In this document: positions 2,821-62,512 of the stretch, piece by piece
How positions within the stretch are numbered: position 1 is the stretch's first letter
Layout: each line of letters begins with the position of its first letter
Source: a virus
IMG/VR virus record: IMGVR_UViG_3300042691_026427
Location: 85,249-149,248 of that record
DNA: 64,000 nucleotides
Strand: one strand, 5' to 3'
Notes under the pieces: generated by a model
What the model saw: only the letters and a program-made list of their open reading frames with translations
Databases searched by the model: none
What the model was told of the DNA's origin: nothing
Program-made: the position numbers and the translations under genes

Positions 2821-5814
2821 TTATCGAGGTGTAATATCTTTTAATTGATAAGCGGTAAAGGATGCAGTTGTTACGGATCCAATTAACGGCTGTGTCAAAT
2901 AAATTGTATAGTTTCCCGATGCATCGGGACCTGAATATGCAGCAGAAAGAGGATCGGCTGGATCATAATTAGCAGTGATAGTATTAACATCAACTCCGTC
3001 ACCTCTTACATCCATACCAGGCATAATTCCAATAGGATTAGCAGGAGTTGTAACTGTAGTGGCTAATAAGTAAGAGTCGCCAGCAGTTCCAATTACAGGA
3101 AGATCAAATACAGGAGGAGTTATTTCTGCCATAACAAATACTGCTTGATTAACATCATCAAAATATGTGTCGCCGGGGCGCAGTGAAGAATACGGATTAG
3201 CTACAAAGTCTGTATAGTTTGTAAAATGTTTTGGTGCTCGTCTGTCTTGGTGTATGCCTTCGTCACCTAGGTCAATTCCTATATTTTTAACCCATTCAAC
3301 ATAGCCACCTGGGTTTATTGTTATATTTGTAAATGTTACAGATGCTGTTACAGCAACATCTTGCCCAATAGAAATAGTAGAAGTAGTGCCGGAACCTGTA
3401 TTAACAGAAACGCCAATCCCTCCTTCTATATTAGCCAACGAACTGCCGCCTGTACCCGGACTTCCTACATAACCAATTACGCCGGAACTACCGACAAAGC
3501 CGATACCTTCACTGCCAGTATAACCAAATGAACCTACAAATCCTTGACTACCATTATAACCGAAACTACCAGTAAAACCCACGGGTCCTTCACTGCCAGT
3601 ATATCCAATTGAACCTACAAATCCTATTGAACCTGTGTAGCCTTCACTACCAGTATATCCAATTGAACCTACAAATCCTATTGAACCTGTGTAGCCTTCA
3701 CTACCAGTGTAACCAAATGAACCTACAAAACCTTCACTTCCAGTATATCCAATCGAACCTACAAATCCTATTGATCCAGTATATCCAATCGAACCTGTCG
3801 ACCCTACAAAACCTTCACTACCGGTATAGCCAAATGATCCAAAGTAGCCTATTGATCCAGTATATCCAATTGAACCTGTTGAACCTACAAATCCTTCACT
3901 ACCAGTGTAACCAAATGATCCAAAGTAGCCTATTGATCCAGTATCGCCTTTGTCGCCCTTCGGTCCTTTGATTTCTCCTACGTCTGACCAAGATGATCCT
4001 GTCCATACGTTTAGGTGCCCGTCGTCATTAGTAATATATCCATCGCCGATATCTCCTGTATAGGGCAAAGGTAATAATGTGTAAGTTGATGTATTTCCAA
4101 CGATAGTTACCGATGTGCCATCATTTCCTTTGCTACCAGTATAACCAAATGATCCGGTATAGCCAAATGATCCTACAAAACCTTCACTACCAGTATAACC
4201 AAAACTACCAGTGTAACCAAATGATCCGGTATAGCCAAATGATCCTACAAAACCTTCACTACCAGTATATCCAAAACTACCAGTATAGCCTATCGATCCA
4301 GTATAACCAAATGATCCGGTATAGCCAAATGATCCTACAAAACCTTCACTACCAGTATAACCAAATGACCCAGTATAACCAAATGAACCAGTATAACCAA
4401 AGCTACCAGTGTAACCAAATGAACCTACATAACCTTCACTACCAGTAAAAGCTCGACTTCCAGTATAGCCAAATGATCCAGTATATCCAAATGATCCTGC
4501 ATAGCCTTCACTTCCTGTGTAACCAAATGACCCAGTGTAACCAAATGATCCGGTATAGCCAAATGATCCTACAAAACCTTCACTACCTGTATAACTTTGA
4601 CTACCAGTAAATCCAATGCTACCAGTAAATCCAATGCTACCAGTGTAACCAAATGAACCTACATAACCTTCACTACCTATAAATCCTCGTGAACCAGTAA
4701 AACCCTGACTACCTGTAAATGCTCTACTACCGGTATAACCAATGCTACCAGTGTATCCAAATGAACCTACATAACCTTCACTACCTGTATAACTTTGACT
4801 ACCAGTGTATCCAAATGAACCTGCATAGCCTTCACTACCAGTATAACCAAATGAACCTACAAAACCGTCGCTACCAGTATAACCAAATGAACCTACAAAA
4901 CCGTCGCTACCCTGAAAACCCTGACTTCCTACAAATCCCCTACTGCCAGCGAATCCTCGACTGCCAGTGTATCCAAATGAACCTACATAACCTTCACTAC
5001 CGGTGTAACTCTGGCTACCTGTAAAACCAATACTACCAGTATAACCTTCACTACCAGTAAATCCGAAACTACCGGTATACCCAAATGAACCTACAAAACC
5101 TTCACTACCAGTGTAGCCTATACTACCAGTGAAACCTTCACTACCGGCGTAGCCTATACTGCCGGGGGCGCCTTCACTACCGGTATAACCAAATGAACCT
5201 ACAAAACCTTCACTACCAGTGTAGCCTATACTACCAGTAAATCCAGTTTGTCCCACACTGCCCACATAGCCAATAATCTGACCTACGTTGACCCACTGCG
5301 AGCCATCCCATACATATAGATCTCCAGTGCTTTCTGCAATAAAACCATCAGATTGAGAAGCGCCAGTTGGCAATCCACTAGGATTAGTAACTGTTCCTTG
5401 AATTGTAACCGATGCACCTGGGGCACCTGGTTCTCCTTTTAGACCTTGACTACCAGTAAATCCAAAACTACCAGTATAACCTAAACCACCTAATTCTATT
5501 TGTTCCCAATTGGCATTAGCATTGGGCAAGTTACCGGTTGCTGTATTTCTATATTCACCTGGCAAAGAAACGTATTTGTAGTATTTTCCGCCTAAGAATG
5601 TTCTTCCGCTATTTGTATAACCAGTGACAACATAGACCAACATACCATCTTGCAGACGTTGTCCGGTTATGTTATGTAGTTGATCCCCAGAATTACCAGT
5701 TATAGAACGAAGAGAACCCCGTATTTCTGCATCTAATACGATGGGATGATTACTAGTCGGGCTCCATGTGCCCGGCCAAGTATTTCTTGTTAAGCCGTCA
5801 TAATTAGAAGTCAT
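2821..5814 (-). CDS. Collagen-like (Gly-X-Y)n tail fibre/whisker protein
   Basis: Long runs of G-X-Y triplets (GYT-GSF/GSE-GFV) interrupted by 'GDxYI...LxVWxGSxWxxVGxIxG' knob motifs. Confidence 0.85.
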   Translation of the reverse strand: MTSNYDGLTRNTWPGTWSPTSNHPIVLDAEIRGSLRSITGNSGDQLHNITGQRLQDGMLVYVVTGYTNSGRTFLGGKYYKYVSLPGEYRNTATGNLPNANANWEQIELGGLGYTGSFGFTGSQGLKGEPGAPGASVTIQGTVTNPSGLPTGASQSDGFIAESTGDLYVWDGSQWVNVGQIIGYVGSVGQTGFTGSIGYTGSEGFVGSFGYTGSEGAPGSIGYAGSEGFTGSIGYTGSEGFVGSFGYTGSFGFTGSEGYTGSIGFTGSQSYTGSEGYVGSFGYTGSRGFAGSRGFVGSQGFQGSDGFVGSFGYTGSDGFVGSFGYTGSEGYAGSFGYTGSQSYTGSEGYVGSFGYTGSIGYTGSRAFTGSQGFTGSRGFIGSEGYVGSFGYTGSIGFTGSIGFTGSQSYTGSEGFVGSFGYTGSFGYTGSFGYTGSEGYAGSFGYTGSFGYTGSRAFTGSEGYVGSFGYTGSFGYTGSFGYTGSFGYTGSEGFVGSFGYTGSFGYTGSIGYTGSFGYTGSEGFVGSFGYTGSFGYTGSFGYTGSEGFVGSFGYTGSFGYTGSKGNDGTSVTIVGNTSTYTLLPLPYTGDIGDGYITNDDGHLNVWTGSSWSDVGEIKGPKGDKGDTGSIGYFGSFGYTGSEGFVGSTGSIGYTGSIGYFGSFGYTGSEGFVGSTGSIGYTGSIGFVGSIGYTGSEGFVGSFGYTGSEGYTGSIGFVGSIGYTGSEGYTGSIGFVGSIGYTGSEGPVGFTGSFGYNGSQGFVGSFGYTGSEGIGFVGSSGVIGYVGSPGTGGSSLANIEGGIGVSVNTGSGTTSTISIGQDVAVTASVTFTNITINPGGYVEWVKNIGIDLGDEGIHQDRRAPKHFTNYTDFVANPYSSLRPGDTYFDDVNQAVFVMAEITPPVFDLPVIGTAGDSYLLATTVTTPANPIGIMPGMDVRGDGVDVNTITANYDPADPLSAAYSGPDASGNYTIYLTQPLIGSVTTASFTAYQLKDITPR

Positions 5815-13100: not shown

Positions 13101-15008
13101 ATCTGCAACTGTTACAGTGACTGGACCACCTTCGACTACTTCCACATCATCTAGGGTTACAAACTTGCCCGGAATACGGCTTTCTTTAACTGTGAATTTT
13201 TCATTGCCCGAACCCACAGTCATTTCACGACCGTCTTGATCAATTTGGAAGGTTATGCTTTCCCAGTATTGTGTATCGTCATAACTAGTATCTGGATCAA
13301 GATTTTTTACTGTGACTTGGACTGCTAACTTGCCGGAGTTGTTGACTGCTAAACTACGTCCCATGCTAGCGCCATAATCAAACACTCCCGGAGCACCTTC
13401 AAAGTTGGCAGTAGTTCTGTTCTGAACAAACTGGTATCTGTCTGCTTCAATATAGCGTTGCCAAAGCACAGCACCTGAAGTAGAATATTTGGCAATGGCT
13501 AGGACATCTTTAGCAGGAGGATCTGAAAAATTGTAGTTATCGTTATCTCTGTTAGGATCTTTCTGTGCTGTGGTTAGAGCACTGAGATAGACATTGCCTA
13601 GACTATCGCAGTCGATACCTGTACCAACTGACGCACAAGGTCCTGGGCCCGCTCTGCGTATCCACTGTGTTACACCTGAGGTGTTGAGTTTTACAATGTA
13701 GACCACAGTTTTAGTATAAGTGTCGGATTGATCGTGTACAATATTGATACGACCGTTGATACTGACAAACACATTACCCTGACTGTCCGCAGTGATGTCA
13801 GCACCACTAGATTCACCTTCTAGGTTGCTTAGTACTCTAGTCCAAACTTCTGTGCCAGTTGTTCCATCAAATTTAGTAACATAGGCAAAAGTTGGTCCAG
13901 GAGGAACAGACCAACCTCCAGTAACAACAAGATCACCGTTAGAGTCTATTTCCATCCCTTGTGGCCTAACAACAAACCCTGGTTCTTCAAGATAAAAAGA
14001 TTTAGCCCATGTTAGCGATCCGTCAGAGTTGGAAATTTTTAGTAGAGCACCGATAGGGTCGTCATTGACGTTTTCTAGGTACCTTGCGGCAATAAAAGTA
14101 TGTGTACCGTTGGTAACTGCTCCTGCTAGTTCTAAATCACTGTTTACGCCCTGGCGAGTTAACCGATAAGCATACGGATCGTTGTTTATTATTTCTACAG
14201 GGGAGTTGGCTGCTATATATAGGGGAGTGGTATCAGTACCACTATTGTATGCTCCTATGCCTAATACTGCGGCAATTGTGGCATAGGTTGTGCCGGTGTT
14301 AGAGCTTTCCTGTAGGCTCCACCCGGTGTTGTCACTGAAATAAGCATAGTCCCCTGAAATAGTTACTACATCAACTGTGTTGCCCCCAAATGTTCCTGAG
14401 GTAACACCGCCGGCGCCTAAATTGAATCCTTCAGTAATTGGTACTAGCACCGAAGGACGATAGTCCTTCTTCCACAGTTCTGCACCCGATGATGTATATT
14501 TGATCGCCTGTAGTCTATCAACACTGGCGTCGCGGCTGAACAATACAATGATGTTGTCATCTGCGTCTATAACGACATCGTGTGACTGATCGATGTCCAT
14601 ATCTTCCTGTATCTCTTTTTGCCAGAGCAGAGTGGCTGAAGAATTAAACTTTGAGATTATTAATCGGTCTACATTGAATGGTCCAGTATCAACTTCGCTA
14701 ATGTGTAAGGTGATTAAATTGTCCTCACTGTCGTAGGCCACTGCTGATGATTCAACACCGTCATCTTCGTTGTTAGAACGATTTACAATGGCAAAGTAAT
14801 CTGTGTTGCCCACTGTGACAGTAACTGCTTGATCGTCTGTAAGTGTGTCGCCGCCAGCGTGTTGTAATCCAGACCAAGCAGTTACACCGTCACCGTATTT
14901 GACCTTGCCGGTGTCGGTTTCTAAACCCGGTTCACCTGCGGCCAAGATTGGATTAGTGTTTAGCCAATTAGCGGCTGTATCTCTGCGTAGTTTGATTCTT
15001 GTTGTCAT
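10185..15008 (-). CDS. Tail fibre/receptor-binding protein with Mtd N-terminal-like domain and beta-propeller repeats
   Basis: 'IKLRRDTAANW...NPILAAGEPGLETDTGKVKYGDGVTAW'; repeated 'K(Y/F)xSSGxxxW' and 'VAVDxxxNVY' blades. Confidence 0.8.
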   Translation of the reverse strand: MTTRIKLRRDTAANWLNTNPILAAGEPGLETDTGKVKYGDGVTAWSGLQHAGGDTLTDDQAVTVTVGNTDYFAIVNRSNNEDDGVESSAVAYDSEDNLITLHISEVDTGPFNVDRLIISKFNSSATLLWQKEIQEDMDIDQSHDVVIDADDNIIVLFSRDASVDRLQAIKYTSSGAELWKKDYRPSVLVPITEGFNLGAGGVTSGTFGGNTVDVVTISGDYAYFSDNTGWSLQESSNTGTTYATIAAVLGIGAYNSGTDTTPLYIAANSPVEIINNDPYAYRLTRQGVNSDLELAGAVTNGTHTFIAARYLENVNDDPIGALLKISNSDGSLTWAKSFYLEEPGFVVRPQGMEIDSNGDLVVTGGWSVPPGPTFAYVTKFDGTTGTEVWTRVLSNLEGESSGADITADSQGNVFVSINGRINIVHDQSDTYTKTVVYIVKLNTSGVTQWIRRAGPGPCASVGTGIDCDSLGNVYLSALTTAQKDPNRDNDNYNFSDPPAKDVLAIAKYSTSGAVLWQRYIEADRYQFVQNRTTANFEGAPGVFDYGASMGRSLAVNNSGKLAVQVTVKNLDPDTSYDDTQYWESITFQIDQDGREMTVGSGNEKFTVKESRIPGKFVTLDDVEVVEGGPVTVTVADITADVVVTTPTITYADPELAQLVIKSAPYEYVFGNDGTLTIPNDGDIQLTQTQLGWFSVFGPPNNINTYDIDVRTNCVDFTTGDVYIGGEEEDDQRGFVARYNSQGEVLWSIRLFDDDEGYVSGIYAMKINPTTGNLVVLAIYDDSDILLVEIDPDTARVVNSAGVRDLNNNSGTYGYDFDFLSDGKIVVVGSKYDEYQSYQVTPVTTGSGVGVLSFLRSNVPGETITDSWYVAGANITGTRVNIDSVNRYPGLTTTVRQGSGTVTFDIDDVGDGTYSLVAFNGVGSTNYLVGHKLKVLGSLLGGADGVNDAVLTVSAIDPGGVIDSFDTAVAGTAAGVSPASYTGRTGINHNVGSGCTMTLQFEPTGIVNSVYAFDTTGTNYVIGDVLTVPGTQFLGGTTSSQILSATTVAYSGEAFFSKSTYPTLNDTLNAVSGGAIAKFEATGAIGRVTVVRDADGTNWGVAFTMISGSDGGGVINFFAGNDVTMIVIDNSGAGPGGVNGTDSVGGSAPTTHWRVQTTNQTPDYSSTGTWTVQKSINGEAFVYVGTASGVPFAPVWTKVLSAGGSTDNERYRSVAVDASNNVYAVGEMIAVNNAAGADLNSYWCAVVSKFNSTGVHQWTKALNTSLDDHYAKSVAVLGNTIAVSHYNNDNNRTVITKLDATGAVKWQRDVVANDSDSSVAVDTNGDIYAAIESFSESQYNQCIRLVRLNTYGEVVWRKILATHIGSNGQSLNDYLREGRNLHLDATHLYVSGITTAFDNEYDNGFLVKLPKSGDCDGIYGAWTVMMDAYDVDKINSTRATAFTPNIGTGEFETWNPDFESNWWDPSNGDNHYHTLSEIRDRDGGAIEFADGTRQTSSAQQIPQRAIFNGADHRLSLEDMGKHIYITDNETRIAVPYHEDVPLPIGFTVVIINNSGGTVSIDGDGFGTINIIVPGVDTATYWDLANPGMATLIKVDNSTWFMTGNVSVD

Positions 15009-22030: not shown

Positions 22031-22347
22031 ATTCTAAAACTTTCACCGCATCCGCAGCGGTCGCGTTCATTTGGATTTTTAAAATCAAATCCTTCGTTAA
22101 GTCCATTCCGAACCCAATCAATTTCAACACCTTGAATATATGCACAGCTTTTAGGATCAACATATAGTTGGCAACCATACGACTCAAAGCATCGATCTTC
22201 CGGGTTTGGTTGATCCACATATTCTAACACATAGGCCAGTCCAGAACATCCAGTAGTTTTAACGCCTACTCGTAATCCTATACCTTTACCTCTTTTGGAT
22301 AAGGTTGCTTTGACTTTTTTAGCAGCCTGTTCAGTTAGTGATATCAT
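22027..22347 (-). CDS. iscA: Fe-S cluster assembly protein IscA
   Basis: '[25 protein letters not shown]...[23 protein letters not shown]'; start reassigned to ATG 22347. Confidence 0.92.
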
Positions 22348-22714
22348 GTTTGTTTTTGTAATCAGCCACGGCTGCTTTGATAGCATCTTCTGCTAAAATG
22401 CTACAATGTATCTTAACTGGGGGTAGTGCTAGTTCTTCAGCAATCTCACTGTTCTTGATAGTGCCTGCTTGATCAAGTGTCATGCCTTTGACCATTTCTG
22501 TTATAAGACTGCTGCTGGCGATAGCACTGCCGCAGCCATAAGTTTTGAAGCGAGCATCAGTAATAATACCATCCTCAACTTTGATCTGTAGTTTCATTAC
22601 ATCACCGCAGGCAGGTGCGCCAACCATGCCAGTTCCTACTGTGTCGTCAATATCAAATTTACCTACATTGCGAGGATTTTCATAGTGATCAATTACGGCG
22701 GCCGAATAAGACAT
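22331..22714 (-). CDS. iscU: Fe-S cluster scaffold IscU
   Basis: '[10 protein letters not shown]...[13 protein letters not shown]...[14 protein letters not shown]...[19 protein letters not shown]'. Confidence 0.97.
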
Positions 22715-57031: not shown

Positions 57032-57622
57032 ATATGAAACGTATTTACAATTAGACACATATATATGTATATACACAGTAAGACCCCGCTGTAGTAACTT
57101 TGGATCGAGTGTGTGATAGATACACATATACACATATACACATATATACACTGGAGAGATCAGTTAGAATGCTGTATATACACAGTGTGGGAGAACTGTG
57201 GGAGAACTGTGGGTCCAGAATGGGGTTAGGGTGGTTGGCACCATTTGAGCATAGCCTCTCTTCCCCACCGCCTACCACTGTGCTGACACTGTGAAAACGG
57301 TGCCAAAACTGTGAAAAATACTCCCAAATGACGCCAATAGTGGTGATTTTTCGCCCCATATTCCACCTATTTGGCACCGTTTCTCACCGTTTTTTTGCTG
57401 ATTTTCCACGGTAGTTCGTTGCTCACTATAGTGCTGCAACGAGCTAGTTCGCTGATCAACGGTGGACCGCAACGATGTCTACACTGTATATATACACTAT
57501 ACATAAACTCTACACTGTATATATACATACACACAATGACCCCGCTGCTGTAGATCTCGTTGTATATGTATATGTCTATATATACACATAGATTGACTAT
57601 ATACAGCACTGTAAATATCAAT

Positions 57623-57826
57623 ATGAGCAAGCAAGATAACACACCCGTTGAAACTCTTATATATAATGCGGCTCTCAAAGAGCTCAATCGAAGTGACTAT
57701 AAGAACAGCACTAAAGAGATTCAAAAGGCTTGGGTTATGGGATGGCTGATATCACAGCTGAAAATGGAACATCAATACAGCTACGATCTCAAACGTAGGA
57801 TAGATCACATAATCCACAGTAGATAA
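57623..57826 (+). CDS. Hypothetical protein (67 aa)
   Basis: TAAATA-5nt-ATG; ordinary-complexity sequence inside a repetitive region. Confidence 0.5.
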   Translation: MSKQDNTPVETLIYNAALKELNRSDYKNSTKEIQKAWVMGWLISQLKMEHQYSYDLKRRIDHIIHSR

Positions 57827-57827
57827 C

Positions 57828-57909
57828 ATGACCCCGCTGCTAGTGTATATGTATATACACAATGACCCCGCTGCTAGTGTATATGTATATACACAATGAC
57901 CCCGCTGCT
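57828..57909 (+). repeat. 34-bp tandem repeat (2.4 copies) containing an 8-bp inverted repeat
   Basis: ATGACCCCGCTGCTAGTGTATATGTATATACACA at 57828 and 57862, partial at 57896; GACCCCGCTG core also near 57082 and 57538. Confidence 0.9.
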
Positions 57910-57939
57910 CCAAGTGGGGTTTTTTGCGGCAAAATCCCA

Positions 57940-57968
57940 TTGACAGGCTCTTTGTTTTCGTGTATAAT
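57940..57968 (+). promoter_or_regulatory. Consensus sigma70 promoter for the tRNA operon
   Basis: TTGACA-N17-TATAAT. Confidence 0.9.
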
Positions 57969-57984
57969 AACTACTGTTGAGAGG

Positions 57985-58062
<78 letters not shown>

Positions 58063-58069
58063 GAATAAC

Positions 58070-58154
58070 GCGACTGTGGTGAAATAGGTAGACACAAGAG
58101 ACTTAAAATCTCTCGCTTAACGGCGTGCCGGTTCGATTCCGGCCAGTCGCACCA
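58070..58154 (+). tRNA. tRNA-Leu(UAA)
   Basis: GCGACTG/CAGTCGC acceptor, AGAGA-CTTAAAA-TCTCT anticodon arm, long variable arm, CCA. Confidence 0.93.
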
Positions 58155-58199
58155 AATGGTATCTATATACACATGTAGTATATAGTAGTAGTGATAAAC

Positions 58200-58400
58200 C
58201 CTAGAACAACAGGATATTCTGTGGGGCAGTTGACAGGCACTTACCAGCCGAGAGTCAACAAGATCACAGAGAGGATAGGGTCTTAGACCGCCGCAACTGT
58301 TGAGAATCCAGGACCTTATGTGGTAAGAGGTTAGGGCTCGCTCAATGAGCAGGAACAACTGGATGGGGACAGGATCGGAGACCTGCCGAGTTCTGTACTG
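58200..58400 (+). ncRNA. Candidate structured ncRNA downstream of the tRNAs
   Basis: No credible plus-strand ORF; several complementary segments; 8 GGA motifs; followed by a terminator. Confidence 0.4.
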
Positions 58401-58436
58401 AAAAACCCTATAACCCTTGTGGCGGTAGGGTTTTTT
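58401..58436. terminator. Bidirectional terminator-like hairpin
   Basis: aaaaaCCCTA...TAGGGtttttt. Confidence 0.65.
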
Positions 58437-58437
58437 C

Positions 58438-58555
58438 TTATCCACAGGTTATTCACACATTATTCACAGGTTATCCACAGGCCGAGGGAGTTGTGGATAA
58501 CCTGTGGATTTGCTGTGGATAACCTGTTGGCAAGCTGTGGATAACCTGTGGATAA
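58438..58555. repeat. DnaA-box array (oriC/datA-like)
   Basis: TTATNCACA forward at 58438, 58449, 58460, 58471; reverse TGTGGATAA at 58492, 58514, 58536, 58547; degenerate slots at 58503 and 58525; 11-bp period. Confidence 0.9.
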
Positions 58556-58643
58556 CTTCCGAGCAGGCTGTAGTATTTTCGTATGCAGAAAAACCGTTCG
58601 CGCAGCCTCGCCGTCCACCCCCACTATGTTCGAACATGCGTGT

Positions 58644-58672
58644 ATTATAACATGGTTTTACCAAATTGTCAA
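58644..58672 (-). promoter_or_regulatory. sigma70 promoter firing leftward into the DnaA boxes
   Basis: TTGACA-atttggtaaaaccatgt-TATAAT (17-bp spacer, extended -10). Confidence 0.85.
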
Positions 58673-58711
58673 CCGGTAACCCTATAACCCTGCGGGCTTC
58701 TGGGTCTTTGG

Positions 58712-58740
58712 TTGCATGGGAGACGTTTTGCTGTTATAAT
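58712..58740 (+). promoter_or_regulatory. Early sigma70 promoter
   Basis: TTGCAT-N17-TATAAT with TGn extension; AAGGAG SD downstream. Confidence 0.75.
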
Positions 58741-58768: not shown

Positions 58769-59017
58769 ATGTTTAATACACTTGCAAAAGCAAAATTAGT
58801 TCATAATAAACAAAAAGAATTGTATAAACTAGTTGTCGCATTTAATGTACATACTAAACAAAAAGATAATGGAGATATTGTACACATATTCCCTACGCAA
58901 AAAAAATGTGCTTATGTTAGCGGAGATATTAATTATGAGGAACTGCAAAAAGAAGTATCTCGTTTAACAGAAACTGCTAAAAAGCAATTGCGTACAGATA
59001 ATATTGAATTTGTTTAA
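58769..59017 (+). CDS. Early hypothetical protein (82 aa)
   Basis: AAGGAG SD then ATG 58769. Confidence 0.75.
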   Translation: MFNTLAKAKLVHNKQKELYKLVVAFNVHTKQKDNGDIVHIFPTQKKCAYVSGDINYEELQKEVSRLTETAKKQLRTDNIEFV

Positions 59018-59173: not shown

Positions 59174-59214
59174 TATTATATAATCAAAGGCCCTATGCAC
59201 TGTAGGGTCTTTGG

Positions 59215-59243
59215 TTGACGGATTGGTAAAACCTTGTTATAAT
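59215..59243 (+). promoter_or_regulatory. Early sigma70 promoter with TGGTAAAACC in the spacer
   Basis: TTGACG-N17-TATAAT. Confidence 0.85.
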
Positions 59244-59249
59244 ATACAC

Positions 59250-59588
59250 ATGACACAGACACTAGCACCCCGTAAGAAGCGAGCAGACCGCAACCACATC
59301 ATATACGAGCTGGTTGTCAACGGTCTCAACTACATTGGCGTCACTGCCAAGACAGAGTCTACAGTGAACAAGAGCGTGCTGTCGCGTGCGGCCAAGCACT
59401 TCTACCGTGCTAAGACTGAAGACAAGAACTGGTTGCTCTGTGCTGAACTTCGTAAGTTGAACAGCAAGGATGAGATCCTTGTATATGTACACGAAGTGAT
59501 CCGCGGCAAGGCGGCTGCTCACAAGCGTGAAGTTGAGATCCGTCGTATGGTCAAGCCTGTATTGAACACTGACACAAGAGGAGATTGA
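59250..59588 (+). CDS. GIY-YIG-like nuclease domain protein (probably leaderless)
   Basis: 'IIYELVVNGLNYIGVT...R...H...A...E...I....P.LN'; ATG 6 nt after the -10. Confidence 0.7.
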   Translation: MTQTLAPRKKRADRNHIIYELVVNGLNYIGVTAKTESTVNKSVLSRAAKHFYRAKTEDKNWLLCAELRKLNSKDEILVYVHEVIRGKAAAHKREVEIRRMVKPVLNTDTRGD

Positions 59589-62245: not shown

Positions 62246-62512
62246 ATGAAAGCACTACAAGAGTTCATTGCACAGAAGAATCACTGGAACTCATTCTTCA
62301 AAGGCGAGCAATACGAGATCAAGACTGCCAAAGGTCGTCAGCGTGTCGCAGATATGATTGACAGCGCACTGAGTCCCGAGAACTTGACCTGTGATGGAGA
62401 ACTTCCCCGCACAGAGGTCAATCGGAGATACAAAGAGCTGATGACTGCGGCCAAGCAACTGAAGAAGATGGACCCTGCTGTTAAGTTCTACGAATACGAA
62501 ACGGAGATCTAA
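62246..62512 (+). CDS. Early hypothetical protein
   Basis: AGGAG SD; 'LSPENLTCDGEL' motif. Confidence 0.8.
   Translation: MKALQEFIAQKNHWNSFFKGEQYEIKTAKGRQRVADMIDSALSPENLTCDGELPRTEVNRRYKELMTAAKQLKKMDPAVKFYEYETEI

Follow-up and report, generated by a model that had tools for sequence, protein, structure and literature searches.

The window analysed here is the final 64 kb of the IMG/VR virus record IMGVR_UViG_3300042691_026427, a record that is 44% complete, and it encodes tail-fibre, collagen-like and Mtd-type proteins. Transcription changes from the late to the early strand near 57.4-57.6 kb. An array of DnaA boxes (Table 1) follows some 1 kb into the plus-strand block, on the left margin of a dense cluster of early promoters. 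The initial annotation had set this array at the early/late divergence point itself, which must be corrected, as the strand switch lies about 1 kb further left. An untranslated, repeat-rich zone (57.05-58.7 kb) borders here on genes with strong host-type promoters. The strand-switch zone (57050-57910) contains palindromes of alternating TA/CA, a tandem repeat of 11 bp (TGTGGGAGAAC) and a repeated unit that ends in GACCCCGCTG and, near 57824-57910, is arranged as 34-bp tandem repeats; the last unit of this type in the zone also serves as a terminator. A small plus-strand gene without family (57623-57826, 67 aa) lies inside the same zone.

Table 1. Features of the DnaA-box array and its surroundings, in positions of the window.
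Feature	Position	Strand	Description and basis
Sigma70-type promoter	57940..57968	+	perfect TTGACA-17-TATAAT, drives the tRNA/ncRNA unit, which stops shortly before the array; promoter scan
tRNA-Met (CAT) and tRNA-Leu (TAA)	57985..58154	+	85-100% identical copies in many relatives
ORF-free, possibly structured RNA	58160..58400	+	~240 nt, cotranscribed after the tRNAs; no Rfam family
Hairpin	58401..58435	.	T-run on both strands, abuts the first box; 10-nt arms, 100% complementary; folding
Forward sub-array	58438..58479	+	four perfect DnaA boxes TTATCCACA, TTATTCACA, TTATTCACA, TTATCCACA, 11-bp period
Spacer	58480..58491	.	GGCCGAGGGAGT, GC-rich (9 of 12 G/C, 75% G+C), 12 bp, divides the opposed sub-arrays; sequence
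Reverse sub-array	58492..58555	-	six 11-bp slots, four perfect and two degenerate; word search and repeat finder
Variable part of leader	58556..58607	-	between the invariant 5' block and the first box; comparison with relatives
Near-invariant leader block	58608..58638	-	31 nt, palindrome ATGTTCGAACAT followed by G-rich GTGGGGGTGGACGGCGA; single copy per genome
Leftward sigma70 promoter	58644..58672	-	perfect, TG-extended -10, kept in relatives; promoter scan
Rightward early promoter	58712..58740	+	TTGCAT-17-TATAAT with TG extension, back to back with the leftward promoter, first of the dense early-promoter block; sequence
First early gene	58769..59017	+	82 aa, no known family; homologue adjoins the module in relatives; inverted where the array is missing

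An exact word search found eight perfect TTATNCACA words in the 64-kb window, and all eight lie inside 58438-58555; shuffles gave a chance expectation of about 5.5 per 64 kb, or about 0.01 per 118 bp. The entire 149-kb record holds only six further matches, all scattered. Perfect forward boxes start at 58438, 58449, 58460 and 58471 and perfect reverse boxes at 58492, 58514, 58536 and 58547, the latter occupying four of the six 11-bp slots that the repeat finder delimits on the reverse side (58492-58547). The two remaining slots are degenerate, with TGTGGATTT at 58503 and TGTTGGCAA at 58525, and the second of them includes CTGTTGGCA, a word common to the array of a relative (G003). From centre to centre, the first forward and the first reverse box are 54 bp apart, that is, five 11-bp periods minus 1 bp, which places all ten slots nearly on one face of the helix. 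These searches confirmed the composition and geometry first described for the locus: eight consensus boxes in 118 bp, arranged as four forward boxes and six reverse slots (four of them perfect), with an 11-bp period and a GC-rich spacer of 12 bp. Since the units of the array have been copied from one another, relatives give a stronger argument for its meaning than do the shuffles.

Promoter, start site, leader, array and hairpin make up one leftward unit, a defined module of about 270 bp. Transcription is predicted to start at 58637, the first box begins at about +83, and only the leader and the array lie downstream of the leftward promoter. The hairpin is absent from the list of a simple terminator scan; by its structure it is likely a bidirectional terminator, which would end the leftward array transcript. 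On the other strand, the ORF-free stretch behind the tRNAs is possibly an unannotated structured RNA, parts of which are 73-78% conserved in three relatives (L155, L156 and L220). The rightward early promoter at 58712-58740 fails the promoter scan, since its -35 matches in only three of six positions. A coding reading of the leftward unit was considered, as an ATG stands at the predicted start and opens a frame of 58 codons through the array. Only the first ~10 codons of this frame are common to the relatives, every difference there alters a residue, and the lengths vary, so we treated the unit as non-coding. Rfam holds no family for the leader and gave only far-sub-threshold microRNA-hairpin matches, which are caused by the inverted boxes; nor has the leader a match in any cellular genome. 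Among the neighbouring early proteins, none matched a DNA-binding, Rep or other replication family.

A G-rich, G-skewed 5' end of a transcript favours RNA-DNA hybrids. The leader has a G skew of 0.38 with a G5 run, the strongest among the early transcripts of the window, and an AT content of 35-38% over 58580-58640. Leaders of relatives have skews of 0.24-0.52 versus 0.03 +/- 0.20 for 159 other promoters; as an outlier, the G skew stays under 2 sd.

Logan contigs from two public runs span 58126-58632 and 58163-58637 with zero differences from the window. Their depth over the array equals that of the flanking phage DNA, and they extend from the array into the tRNA/ncRNA unit in one direction and into the leader in the other. 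As independent assemblies bridge the array, the segment is not an assembly chimera. The chimeric host fragment that the initial annotation had named as a danger can be ruled out: both junctions are bridged without differences in contigs from two runs, the leader is foreign to all cellular genomes searched, and phased arrays of four boxes are rare in such genomes (114 stretches among the genomes of 185,579 prokaryote species). There was no RNA run among the public runs listed for the sequence.

A strict pattern derived from the leader retrieved 15 viral stretches. Together, the pattern and loci anchored on proteins yielded 13 leader-bearing stretches, which became 11 distinct versions after two near-identical pairs were merged. 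All belong to related jumbo phages, and ten of the 11 have three to seven perfect boxes within 200 nt downstream; wherever boxes are present, the first lies between +50 and +83 relative to the predicted start. Across versions, both promoter elements (-35 and -10) and the initial 31 nt of the transcript (58638-58608) are near-invariant, and the sequence drifts beyond them. Variant leaders precede the arrays of G002 and L147. One locus, L232 (700-900), has kept the leftward promoter and the invariant leader with zero DnaA boxes downstream, and is a natural control for the leader alone.

The leader, with the exception of L232, goes with the array. Both are present in G000, G007 and G011, and both are absent from G009 and from the complete genome G008. 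Because a complete relative lacks leader and array, the promoter-leader-array module is, to judge from these genomes, accessory. Roughly one fifth of the relatives with a full 10 kb upstream have the array and about four fifths do not; no substitute repeat was found in these array-less relatives. In the four relatives examined, the leftward promoter of the module forms the left edge of the block of rightward early promoters, and in the window the module is second from the left, with one rightward promoter, that of the tRNA operon, further left. In the complete genome G007 some 87 kb separate the module from the contig end, and nothing nearby points to fixed termini. A conserved gene of 67-79 aa without family (L158:3583-3789, L151:4134-4337, L188:1716-1931) ends just before the array in most module-bearing relatives; it is convergent with the leftward promoter and has no homologue in the record of the window. 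Several array-less relatives (L144, L145, L161-L163, L165 and L166) carry the homologue of the first early gene in inverted orientation beside tRNA-Met (~7.3-7.8 kb in L144), under the control of a leftward early-promoter copy. The near-identical promoter cassettes are the apparent means by which early modules are inverted and shuffled. A further candidate relative (L129/G001), reached through the 973-aa protein of the tail-fibre region, was uninformative, having only that module in common and no array.

The alignments of homologous arrays indicate that the DnaA boxes are under selection in relatives. In one alignment, 25 of 27 columns inside boxes are identical versus 19 of 207 between them (p ~1e-19), and in another 34 of 54 versus 54 of 189 (p ~1e-5). 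This far stronger conservation of box columns than of spacer columns gives direct evidence of selection on the 9-mer itself. Spacing is constrained as well: 34 of 46 box-to-box gaps in relatives fall within 1 bp of a multiple of 11 versus 29% under the null, with a p-value of 2.5e-10 that is optimistic because the arrays are related to one another; they had been picked by protein or leader and not by a phased pattern. The search in related phages that had been proposed for this locus thus found the promoter-leader in 11 versions, boxes in ten, and boxes that appear both selected and phased.

Box number, order and orientation change fast among relatives, and box spelling is held. The usual order in relatives is an AT-richer tract, TGTGGATAA boxes, TTATCCACA boxes and a leader read from an inward promoter; the AT-richer tracts are modest (68-84% AT over 25 bp) and distal to the array. 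The window has the opposite, convergent order, with four TTATCCACA followed by six TGTGGATAA slots, in an array that is more compact and more regular, and it has the hairpin at the place of the AT-richer tract. A simple inversion as the source of this reversed polarity was rejected on logic, since a divergent array remains divergent when inverted; duplication and trimming could have led to the convergent order. The main array of G002 consists of seven boxes in a single orientation. A second array in the same genome (L139, G002:20598-20632) resembles a DARS core, with two boxes in the same direction and one opposed after a 6-bp gap; it is placed between the homologue of the window's first early gene, just upstream, and an early promoter whose -35 follows after about 10 bp. 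A 5-kb fragment (L143 / L130, G003:4418-4900), which shares a 74%-identical protein with the window (22331-22714), has a convergent DnaA array with CTGTTGGCA, an adjoining AT-rich tract and two perfect sigma54-type promoters (TGGCAC-N5-TTGCA) downstream.

The 88-aa early protein of the window led to two complete relatives, G007 (383 kb) and G008 (349 kb), each with genes for a helicase of the DnaB family and a polymerase of family B. Among cultured phages, the closest to this polymerase, at 45-49% identity, are jumbo phages of the Rak2, Atu_ph07 and Phosso types, within the T4-type clade; the description of the phage as T4-like is in this loose sense right. The T4-type replisome was not found in the window's own, incomplete record. 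We searched for a phage DnaA or DnaA domain IV as the reader of the boxes and found none in G000, G007, G011 and G002; G008 gave only a sub-threshold match (E 0.09). With no phage DnaA-like reader found, the DnaA of the host is the sole evident candidate, and its binding is a sensible reading. On the comparative evidence, it is highly probable that selection maintains the array as a docking site for DnaA, the initiator of the host, and the phage probably docks this protein there.

Clusters of DnaA boxes are textbook elements of bacterial origins, of the datA and DARS loci and of plasmid replicons. Like E. coli oriC, the array contains tandem consensus boxes (eight perfect ones, where at least two are expected of an oriC-type element), arranged in two opposed 9-mer sub-arrays with 2-bp gaps, strong boxes alternating with weaker ones, and a promoter, there that of mioC, transcribes into it. 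The relatives also match E. coli in overall order, which there is DUE-R1...R4 with PmioC. Unlike oriC, the array of the window is convergent, is built almost entirely of top-affinity sites, belongs to a virulent-type jumbo phage whose complete relatives encode a replisome of their own, and lacks a 13-mer-type unwinding element, DnaA-trios, a match to the IHF consensus and a GATC cluster. Both strands of 58330-58700 were scanned by regular expression for DnaA-trios, which would stand 5' of a box in TGTGGATAA orientation with a short GC-rich spacer between, and none were found; the sole match was the A-tract that belongs to the terminator hairpin and lies on the wrong side for trios. The flanks are 35-62% AT in 40-bp windows, compared with a mean of 60% for the whole window and a 95th percentile of 77% for 30-mers, and the nearest 30-mers with at least 83% AT lie inside the first early gene, 240 bp from the array. 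Divergent half-arrays (TGTGGATAA ... TTATCCACA) occur in relatives and not in the window, where the convergent order puts the 'outside' of both halves into the GC-rich spacer. There is no cluster of GATC in the array flanks, and the IHF consensus WATCAANNNNTTR, which may not be that of the host, has no match in 58330-58700. The first interpretation of the locus is thus supported in part, in that the boxes are real, phased and, by comparison, selected. Its term oriC-like is not borne out in the window, where three defining features, the unwinding element, the DnaA-trios and the polarity of E. coli oriC, are all absent. GC skew, suggested as a further check on an origin, was uninformative, since in the complete relative G007 it follows transcription only, by gene strand, with no replichore signal.

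The resemblance to other classes is also partial. As in datA and in the non-origin clusters of B. subtilis, high-affinity boxes are densely clustered outside the chromosomal origin and away from an unwinding element, with room for many DnaA molecules; datA, on the other hand, needs an IHF site and a particular set of boxes, and the array described here has no IHF consensus, has a dedicated promoter and is phage-borne. The core of DARS consists of three boxes with a 5-bp gap between an opposed pair (PMC6868365). Opposed neighbouring boxes stand beside same-direction boxes both in the DARS1/DARS2 core and here, where the opposed pair is 12 bp apart in an array of ten slots; the three-box array of G002, with its 6-bp gap, comes closer. 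Iteron replicons (P1 oriR, F, RK2, pSC101) differ in that no Rep gene lies near the array and the DnaA box is the only repeat family at the site. Like oriF (uvsY) and oriG of T4, the module has a promoter with a short non-coding transcript that runs into the element (58672-58644, with a leader conserved at the nucleotide level only), is accessory, redundant and poorly conserved in its distribution, and belongs to a family with a T4-type polymerase and helicase. T4, however, uses an AT-rich, easily unwound element downstream of the promoter and no host DnaA, whereas here a GC- and G-rich leader and a DnaA-box array take that place. ColE1/pBR322 offers a further parallel, with a transcript-primed start (proposed here), a G-rich RNA-DNA hybrid and a DnaA box nearby; that box can load DnaB, and a DnaA box in the stem of a single-strand hairpin is a priming signal. 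These plasmid elements and the ABC-primosome signals differ from the array in having a single box and in depending fully on host enzymes. The array belongs to none of the oriC, datA, DARS or iteron families, and is a phage-borne DnaA-box array within a promoter-leader cassette.

Among the possible uses of such a docking site, we rank first, and tentatively, a transcription-coupled auxiliary start of replication, in which DnaA binding, the R-loop and the replication start itself are steps that we infer. Host RNA polymerase would fire leftward early in infection, the G-rich 5' leader would favour a stable RNA-DNA hybrid, and the polymerase would meet a DnaA-loaded, helically phased array 50-85 nt downstream. 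DnaA may then halt the polymerase and so leave a fixed R-loop and a primer end for the phage T4-type replisome; alternatively, or in addition, it may bend and destabilise the DNA and recruit helicase loading. Such a mechanism would resemble T4 oriF/oriG, PmioC reading into oriC and the DnaA-stimulated transcriptional activation of ori-lambda. The ranking rests on the coupling of promoter and leader to the array, on a patchiness that fits T4 biology and on the G-skewed leader with its G5 run. The E. coli-like order of elements in relatives also counts in its favour. The strictness of that coupling argues against a purely passive sink, and the patchy, accessory distribution makes it less likely that the module is the sole essential origin. 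In T4, origins are R-loops driven by promoters; they are redundant and little conserved between related phages, so that a patchy module is compatible with T4-like biology.

Several observations speak against a replication start. There is no unwinding element; the hairpin abuts one side of the array and the GC-rich leader the other. The polarity is the reverse of that in both E. coli oriC and the relatives, so the geometry lacks the conservation to be expected of a precise origin. Nor is it obvious why a phage that encodes its own helicase and polymerase should need DnaA. The complete genome G008 and about four fifths of the relatives (over 10 kb upstream) are array-less, L232 is boxless, and GC skew is silent. 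The more specific version, in which a wall of DnaA acts as a stop sign that halts the polymerase 50-85 nt after its G-rich start and thereby fixes an R-loop primer for the T4-type replisome, is in our view improbable. If it were true, it would define a new class of hybrid origin, with the host initiator as roadblock and phage enzymes as replisome; this origin would be an exchangeable cassette of the early region, and unannotated arrays in other lytic phages could be variants of it.

Less probable than an auxiliary start is that the array works as a high-affinity decoy, titrating or inactivating host DnaA as phage copies rise and so stopping new rounds of host replication. The boxes of the window and its relatives nearly all have the strongest spelling, TTATCCACA, which suits capture of DnaA regardless of its nucleotide state, and the turnover of number, order and orientation under a fixed spelling is the pattern to be expected of an element in which nothing but the number and affinity of its sites counts. 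The missing unwinding element, the accessory nature of the module among early genes of host-takeover type, and the rarity of four-box phased arrays in cellular genomes, beside three-box arrays in more than 120 viral contigs among the matches listed, all fit a decoy. A passive sink, however, needs neither promoter nor leader, and yet the leader is strictly tied to the array across genomes; strong transcription reaching the boxes would also tend to displace DnaA. Eight to ten sites per genome would matter only late, at high copy number, and an IHF consensus site of the datA kind was not found.

We give a similarly low probability to a DnaA-gated barrier or sensor. Here the roadblock would set the 3' end of a short functional leader RNA, or would insulate the convergent upstream unit (the tRNAs in the window, the 67-79-aa gene in relatives), and an early decision would in this way be tied to the DnaA state of the host, which we likewise consider rather unlikely. 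The narrow placing of the first box after the start would suit a roadblock, as would the position of the module between convergent units and the conservation of the RNA, which is strongest in its 5' 31 nt and starts with a hairpin-forming palindrome. The second, three-box array of G002 stands in a regulatory position upstream of its early promoter, and promoters near 84 unrelated viral arrays point away in 38 cases and toward the array in 12, which suggests that such arrays are often upstream regulatory sites. Insulation would not require a protein roadblock, because an intrinsic terminator-like hairpin follows the array in the window; ten phased sites exceed what a roadblock needs, and the leader RNA has no known target, Rfam family or cellular-genome match.

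That the 9-mers are read by a phage protein, or that the inverted array acts as an RNA or single-stranded DNA hairpin, with a merely coincidental match to the DnaA box, appears quite improbable. The opposed boxes do fold strongly, into a long hairpin of -86.8 kcal/mol for a 240-nt transcript (z -5.1) as RNA and to -34 kcal/mol (z -8.0) as single-stranded DNA, and since a hairpin carrying a DnaA box is a known ABC-primosome signal, the structure could matter. Relatives, however, keep the exact 9-mer while its order and orientation change, the seven boxes of the main G002 array, all in one orientation, cannot form a hairpin, selection acts on the letters of the boxes and not on pairing partners, and the neighbouring early proteins offer no DNA-binding family.

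Clusters of DnaA boxes in virulent phages with their own replisome are almost unstudied, and the only discussion we found is an untested model for T5. Its injection-stop (iss) region has eight DnaA boxes beside the pre-early genes, for which a tether was proposed, and its authors regard the region as unlikely to be an origin (bioRxiv 10.1101/866236). Both cases concern a lytic phage with its own replisome, here as seen in complete relatives, and about eight paired, opposed boxes that lie in an untranslated zone rich in repeats, next to genes with early promoters of host type. In T5, the paired boxes are 3 bp apart in long inverted repeats of the terminal repeat, and half of the boxes have variant spellings; the array of the window is a single compact, 11-bp-phased one with no known terminal repeat and within a promoter-leader unit. 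By analogy with this layout, the boxes might hold incoming or early phage DNA to membrane-associated DnaA at the first-expressed border, pausing or positioning the genome, which we regard as very improbable, because the T5 model is itself a proposal, the module of G007 lies far inside its contig with no fixed termini seen nearby, and a tether explains neither the promoter-leader coupling nor the patchy distribution.

New in this analysis, as far as the sequences of the relatives tell, is that the array is one half of a conserved module whose other half is an early promoter with a near-invariant leader. The cassette is optional and returns again and again within a large family of uncultured jumbo phages from fresh water. 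If true, a DnaA-assisted origin, a DnaA decoy or a DnaA-gated switch would each be a new phage use of a core host cell-cycle protein, and an auxiliary replication start, if true, would be relevant to jumbo phages in general, whose origins are unmapped. Comparable phased arrays occur in unannotated stretches of cultured phages of Lactococcus (AM1 type), Klebsiella, Shigella, Escherichia and Vibrio and of microviruses, which opens the question to bench testing. Examples are KY554768 (Lactococcus AM1, ~14822-14868), PQ006258 (a microvirus, ~3787-3832) and MK685668 (Shigella A7, 80-147); in the single-stranded DNA microviruses, a DnaA-box hairpin could serve as a priming signal for the complementary strand. 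A general rule of promoters reading into phage DnaA arrays is unsupported: since promoters near unrelated arrays mostly point away, the inward promoter is a trait of the phage family of the window.

Close cultured relatives were found neither for the flank DNA nor for the 973-aa protein or the 88-aa early protein. The latter (62246-62512, +) belongs to no Pfam or PHROG family and lacks homologues in the records of cultured phages, and at least 588 viral contigs hold relatives of it, with 83-94% identity among 80 of these. The second early gene (59211-59588, +), whose own product is below Pfam significance for GIY-YIG, has 35% identity over 103 aa to a 107-aa protein of relatives (L193:2223-2546) that matches the GIY-YIG nuclease domain (E 9e-6).
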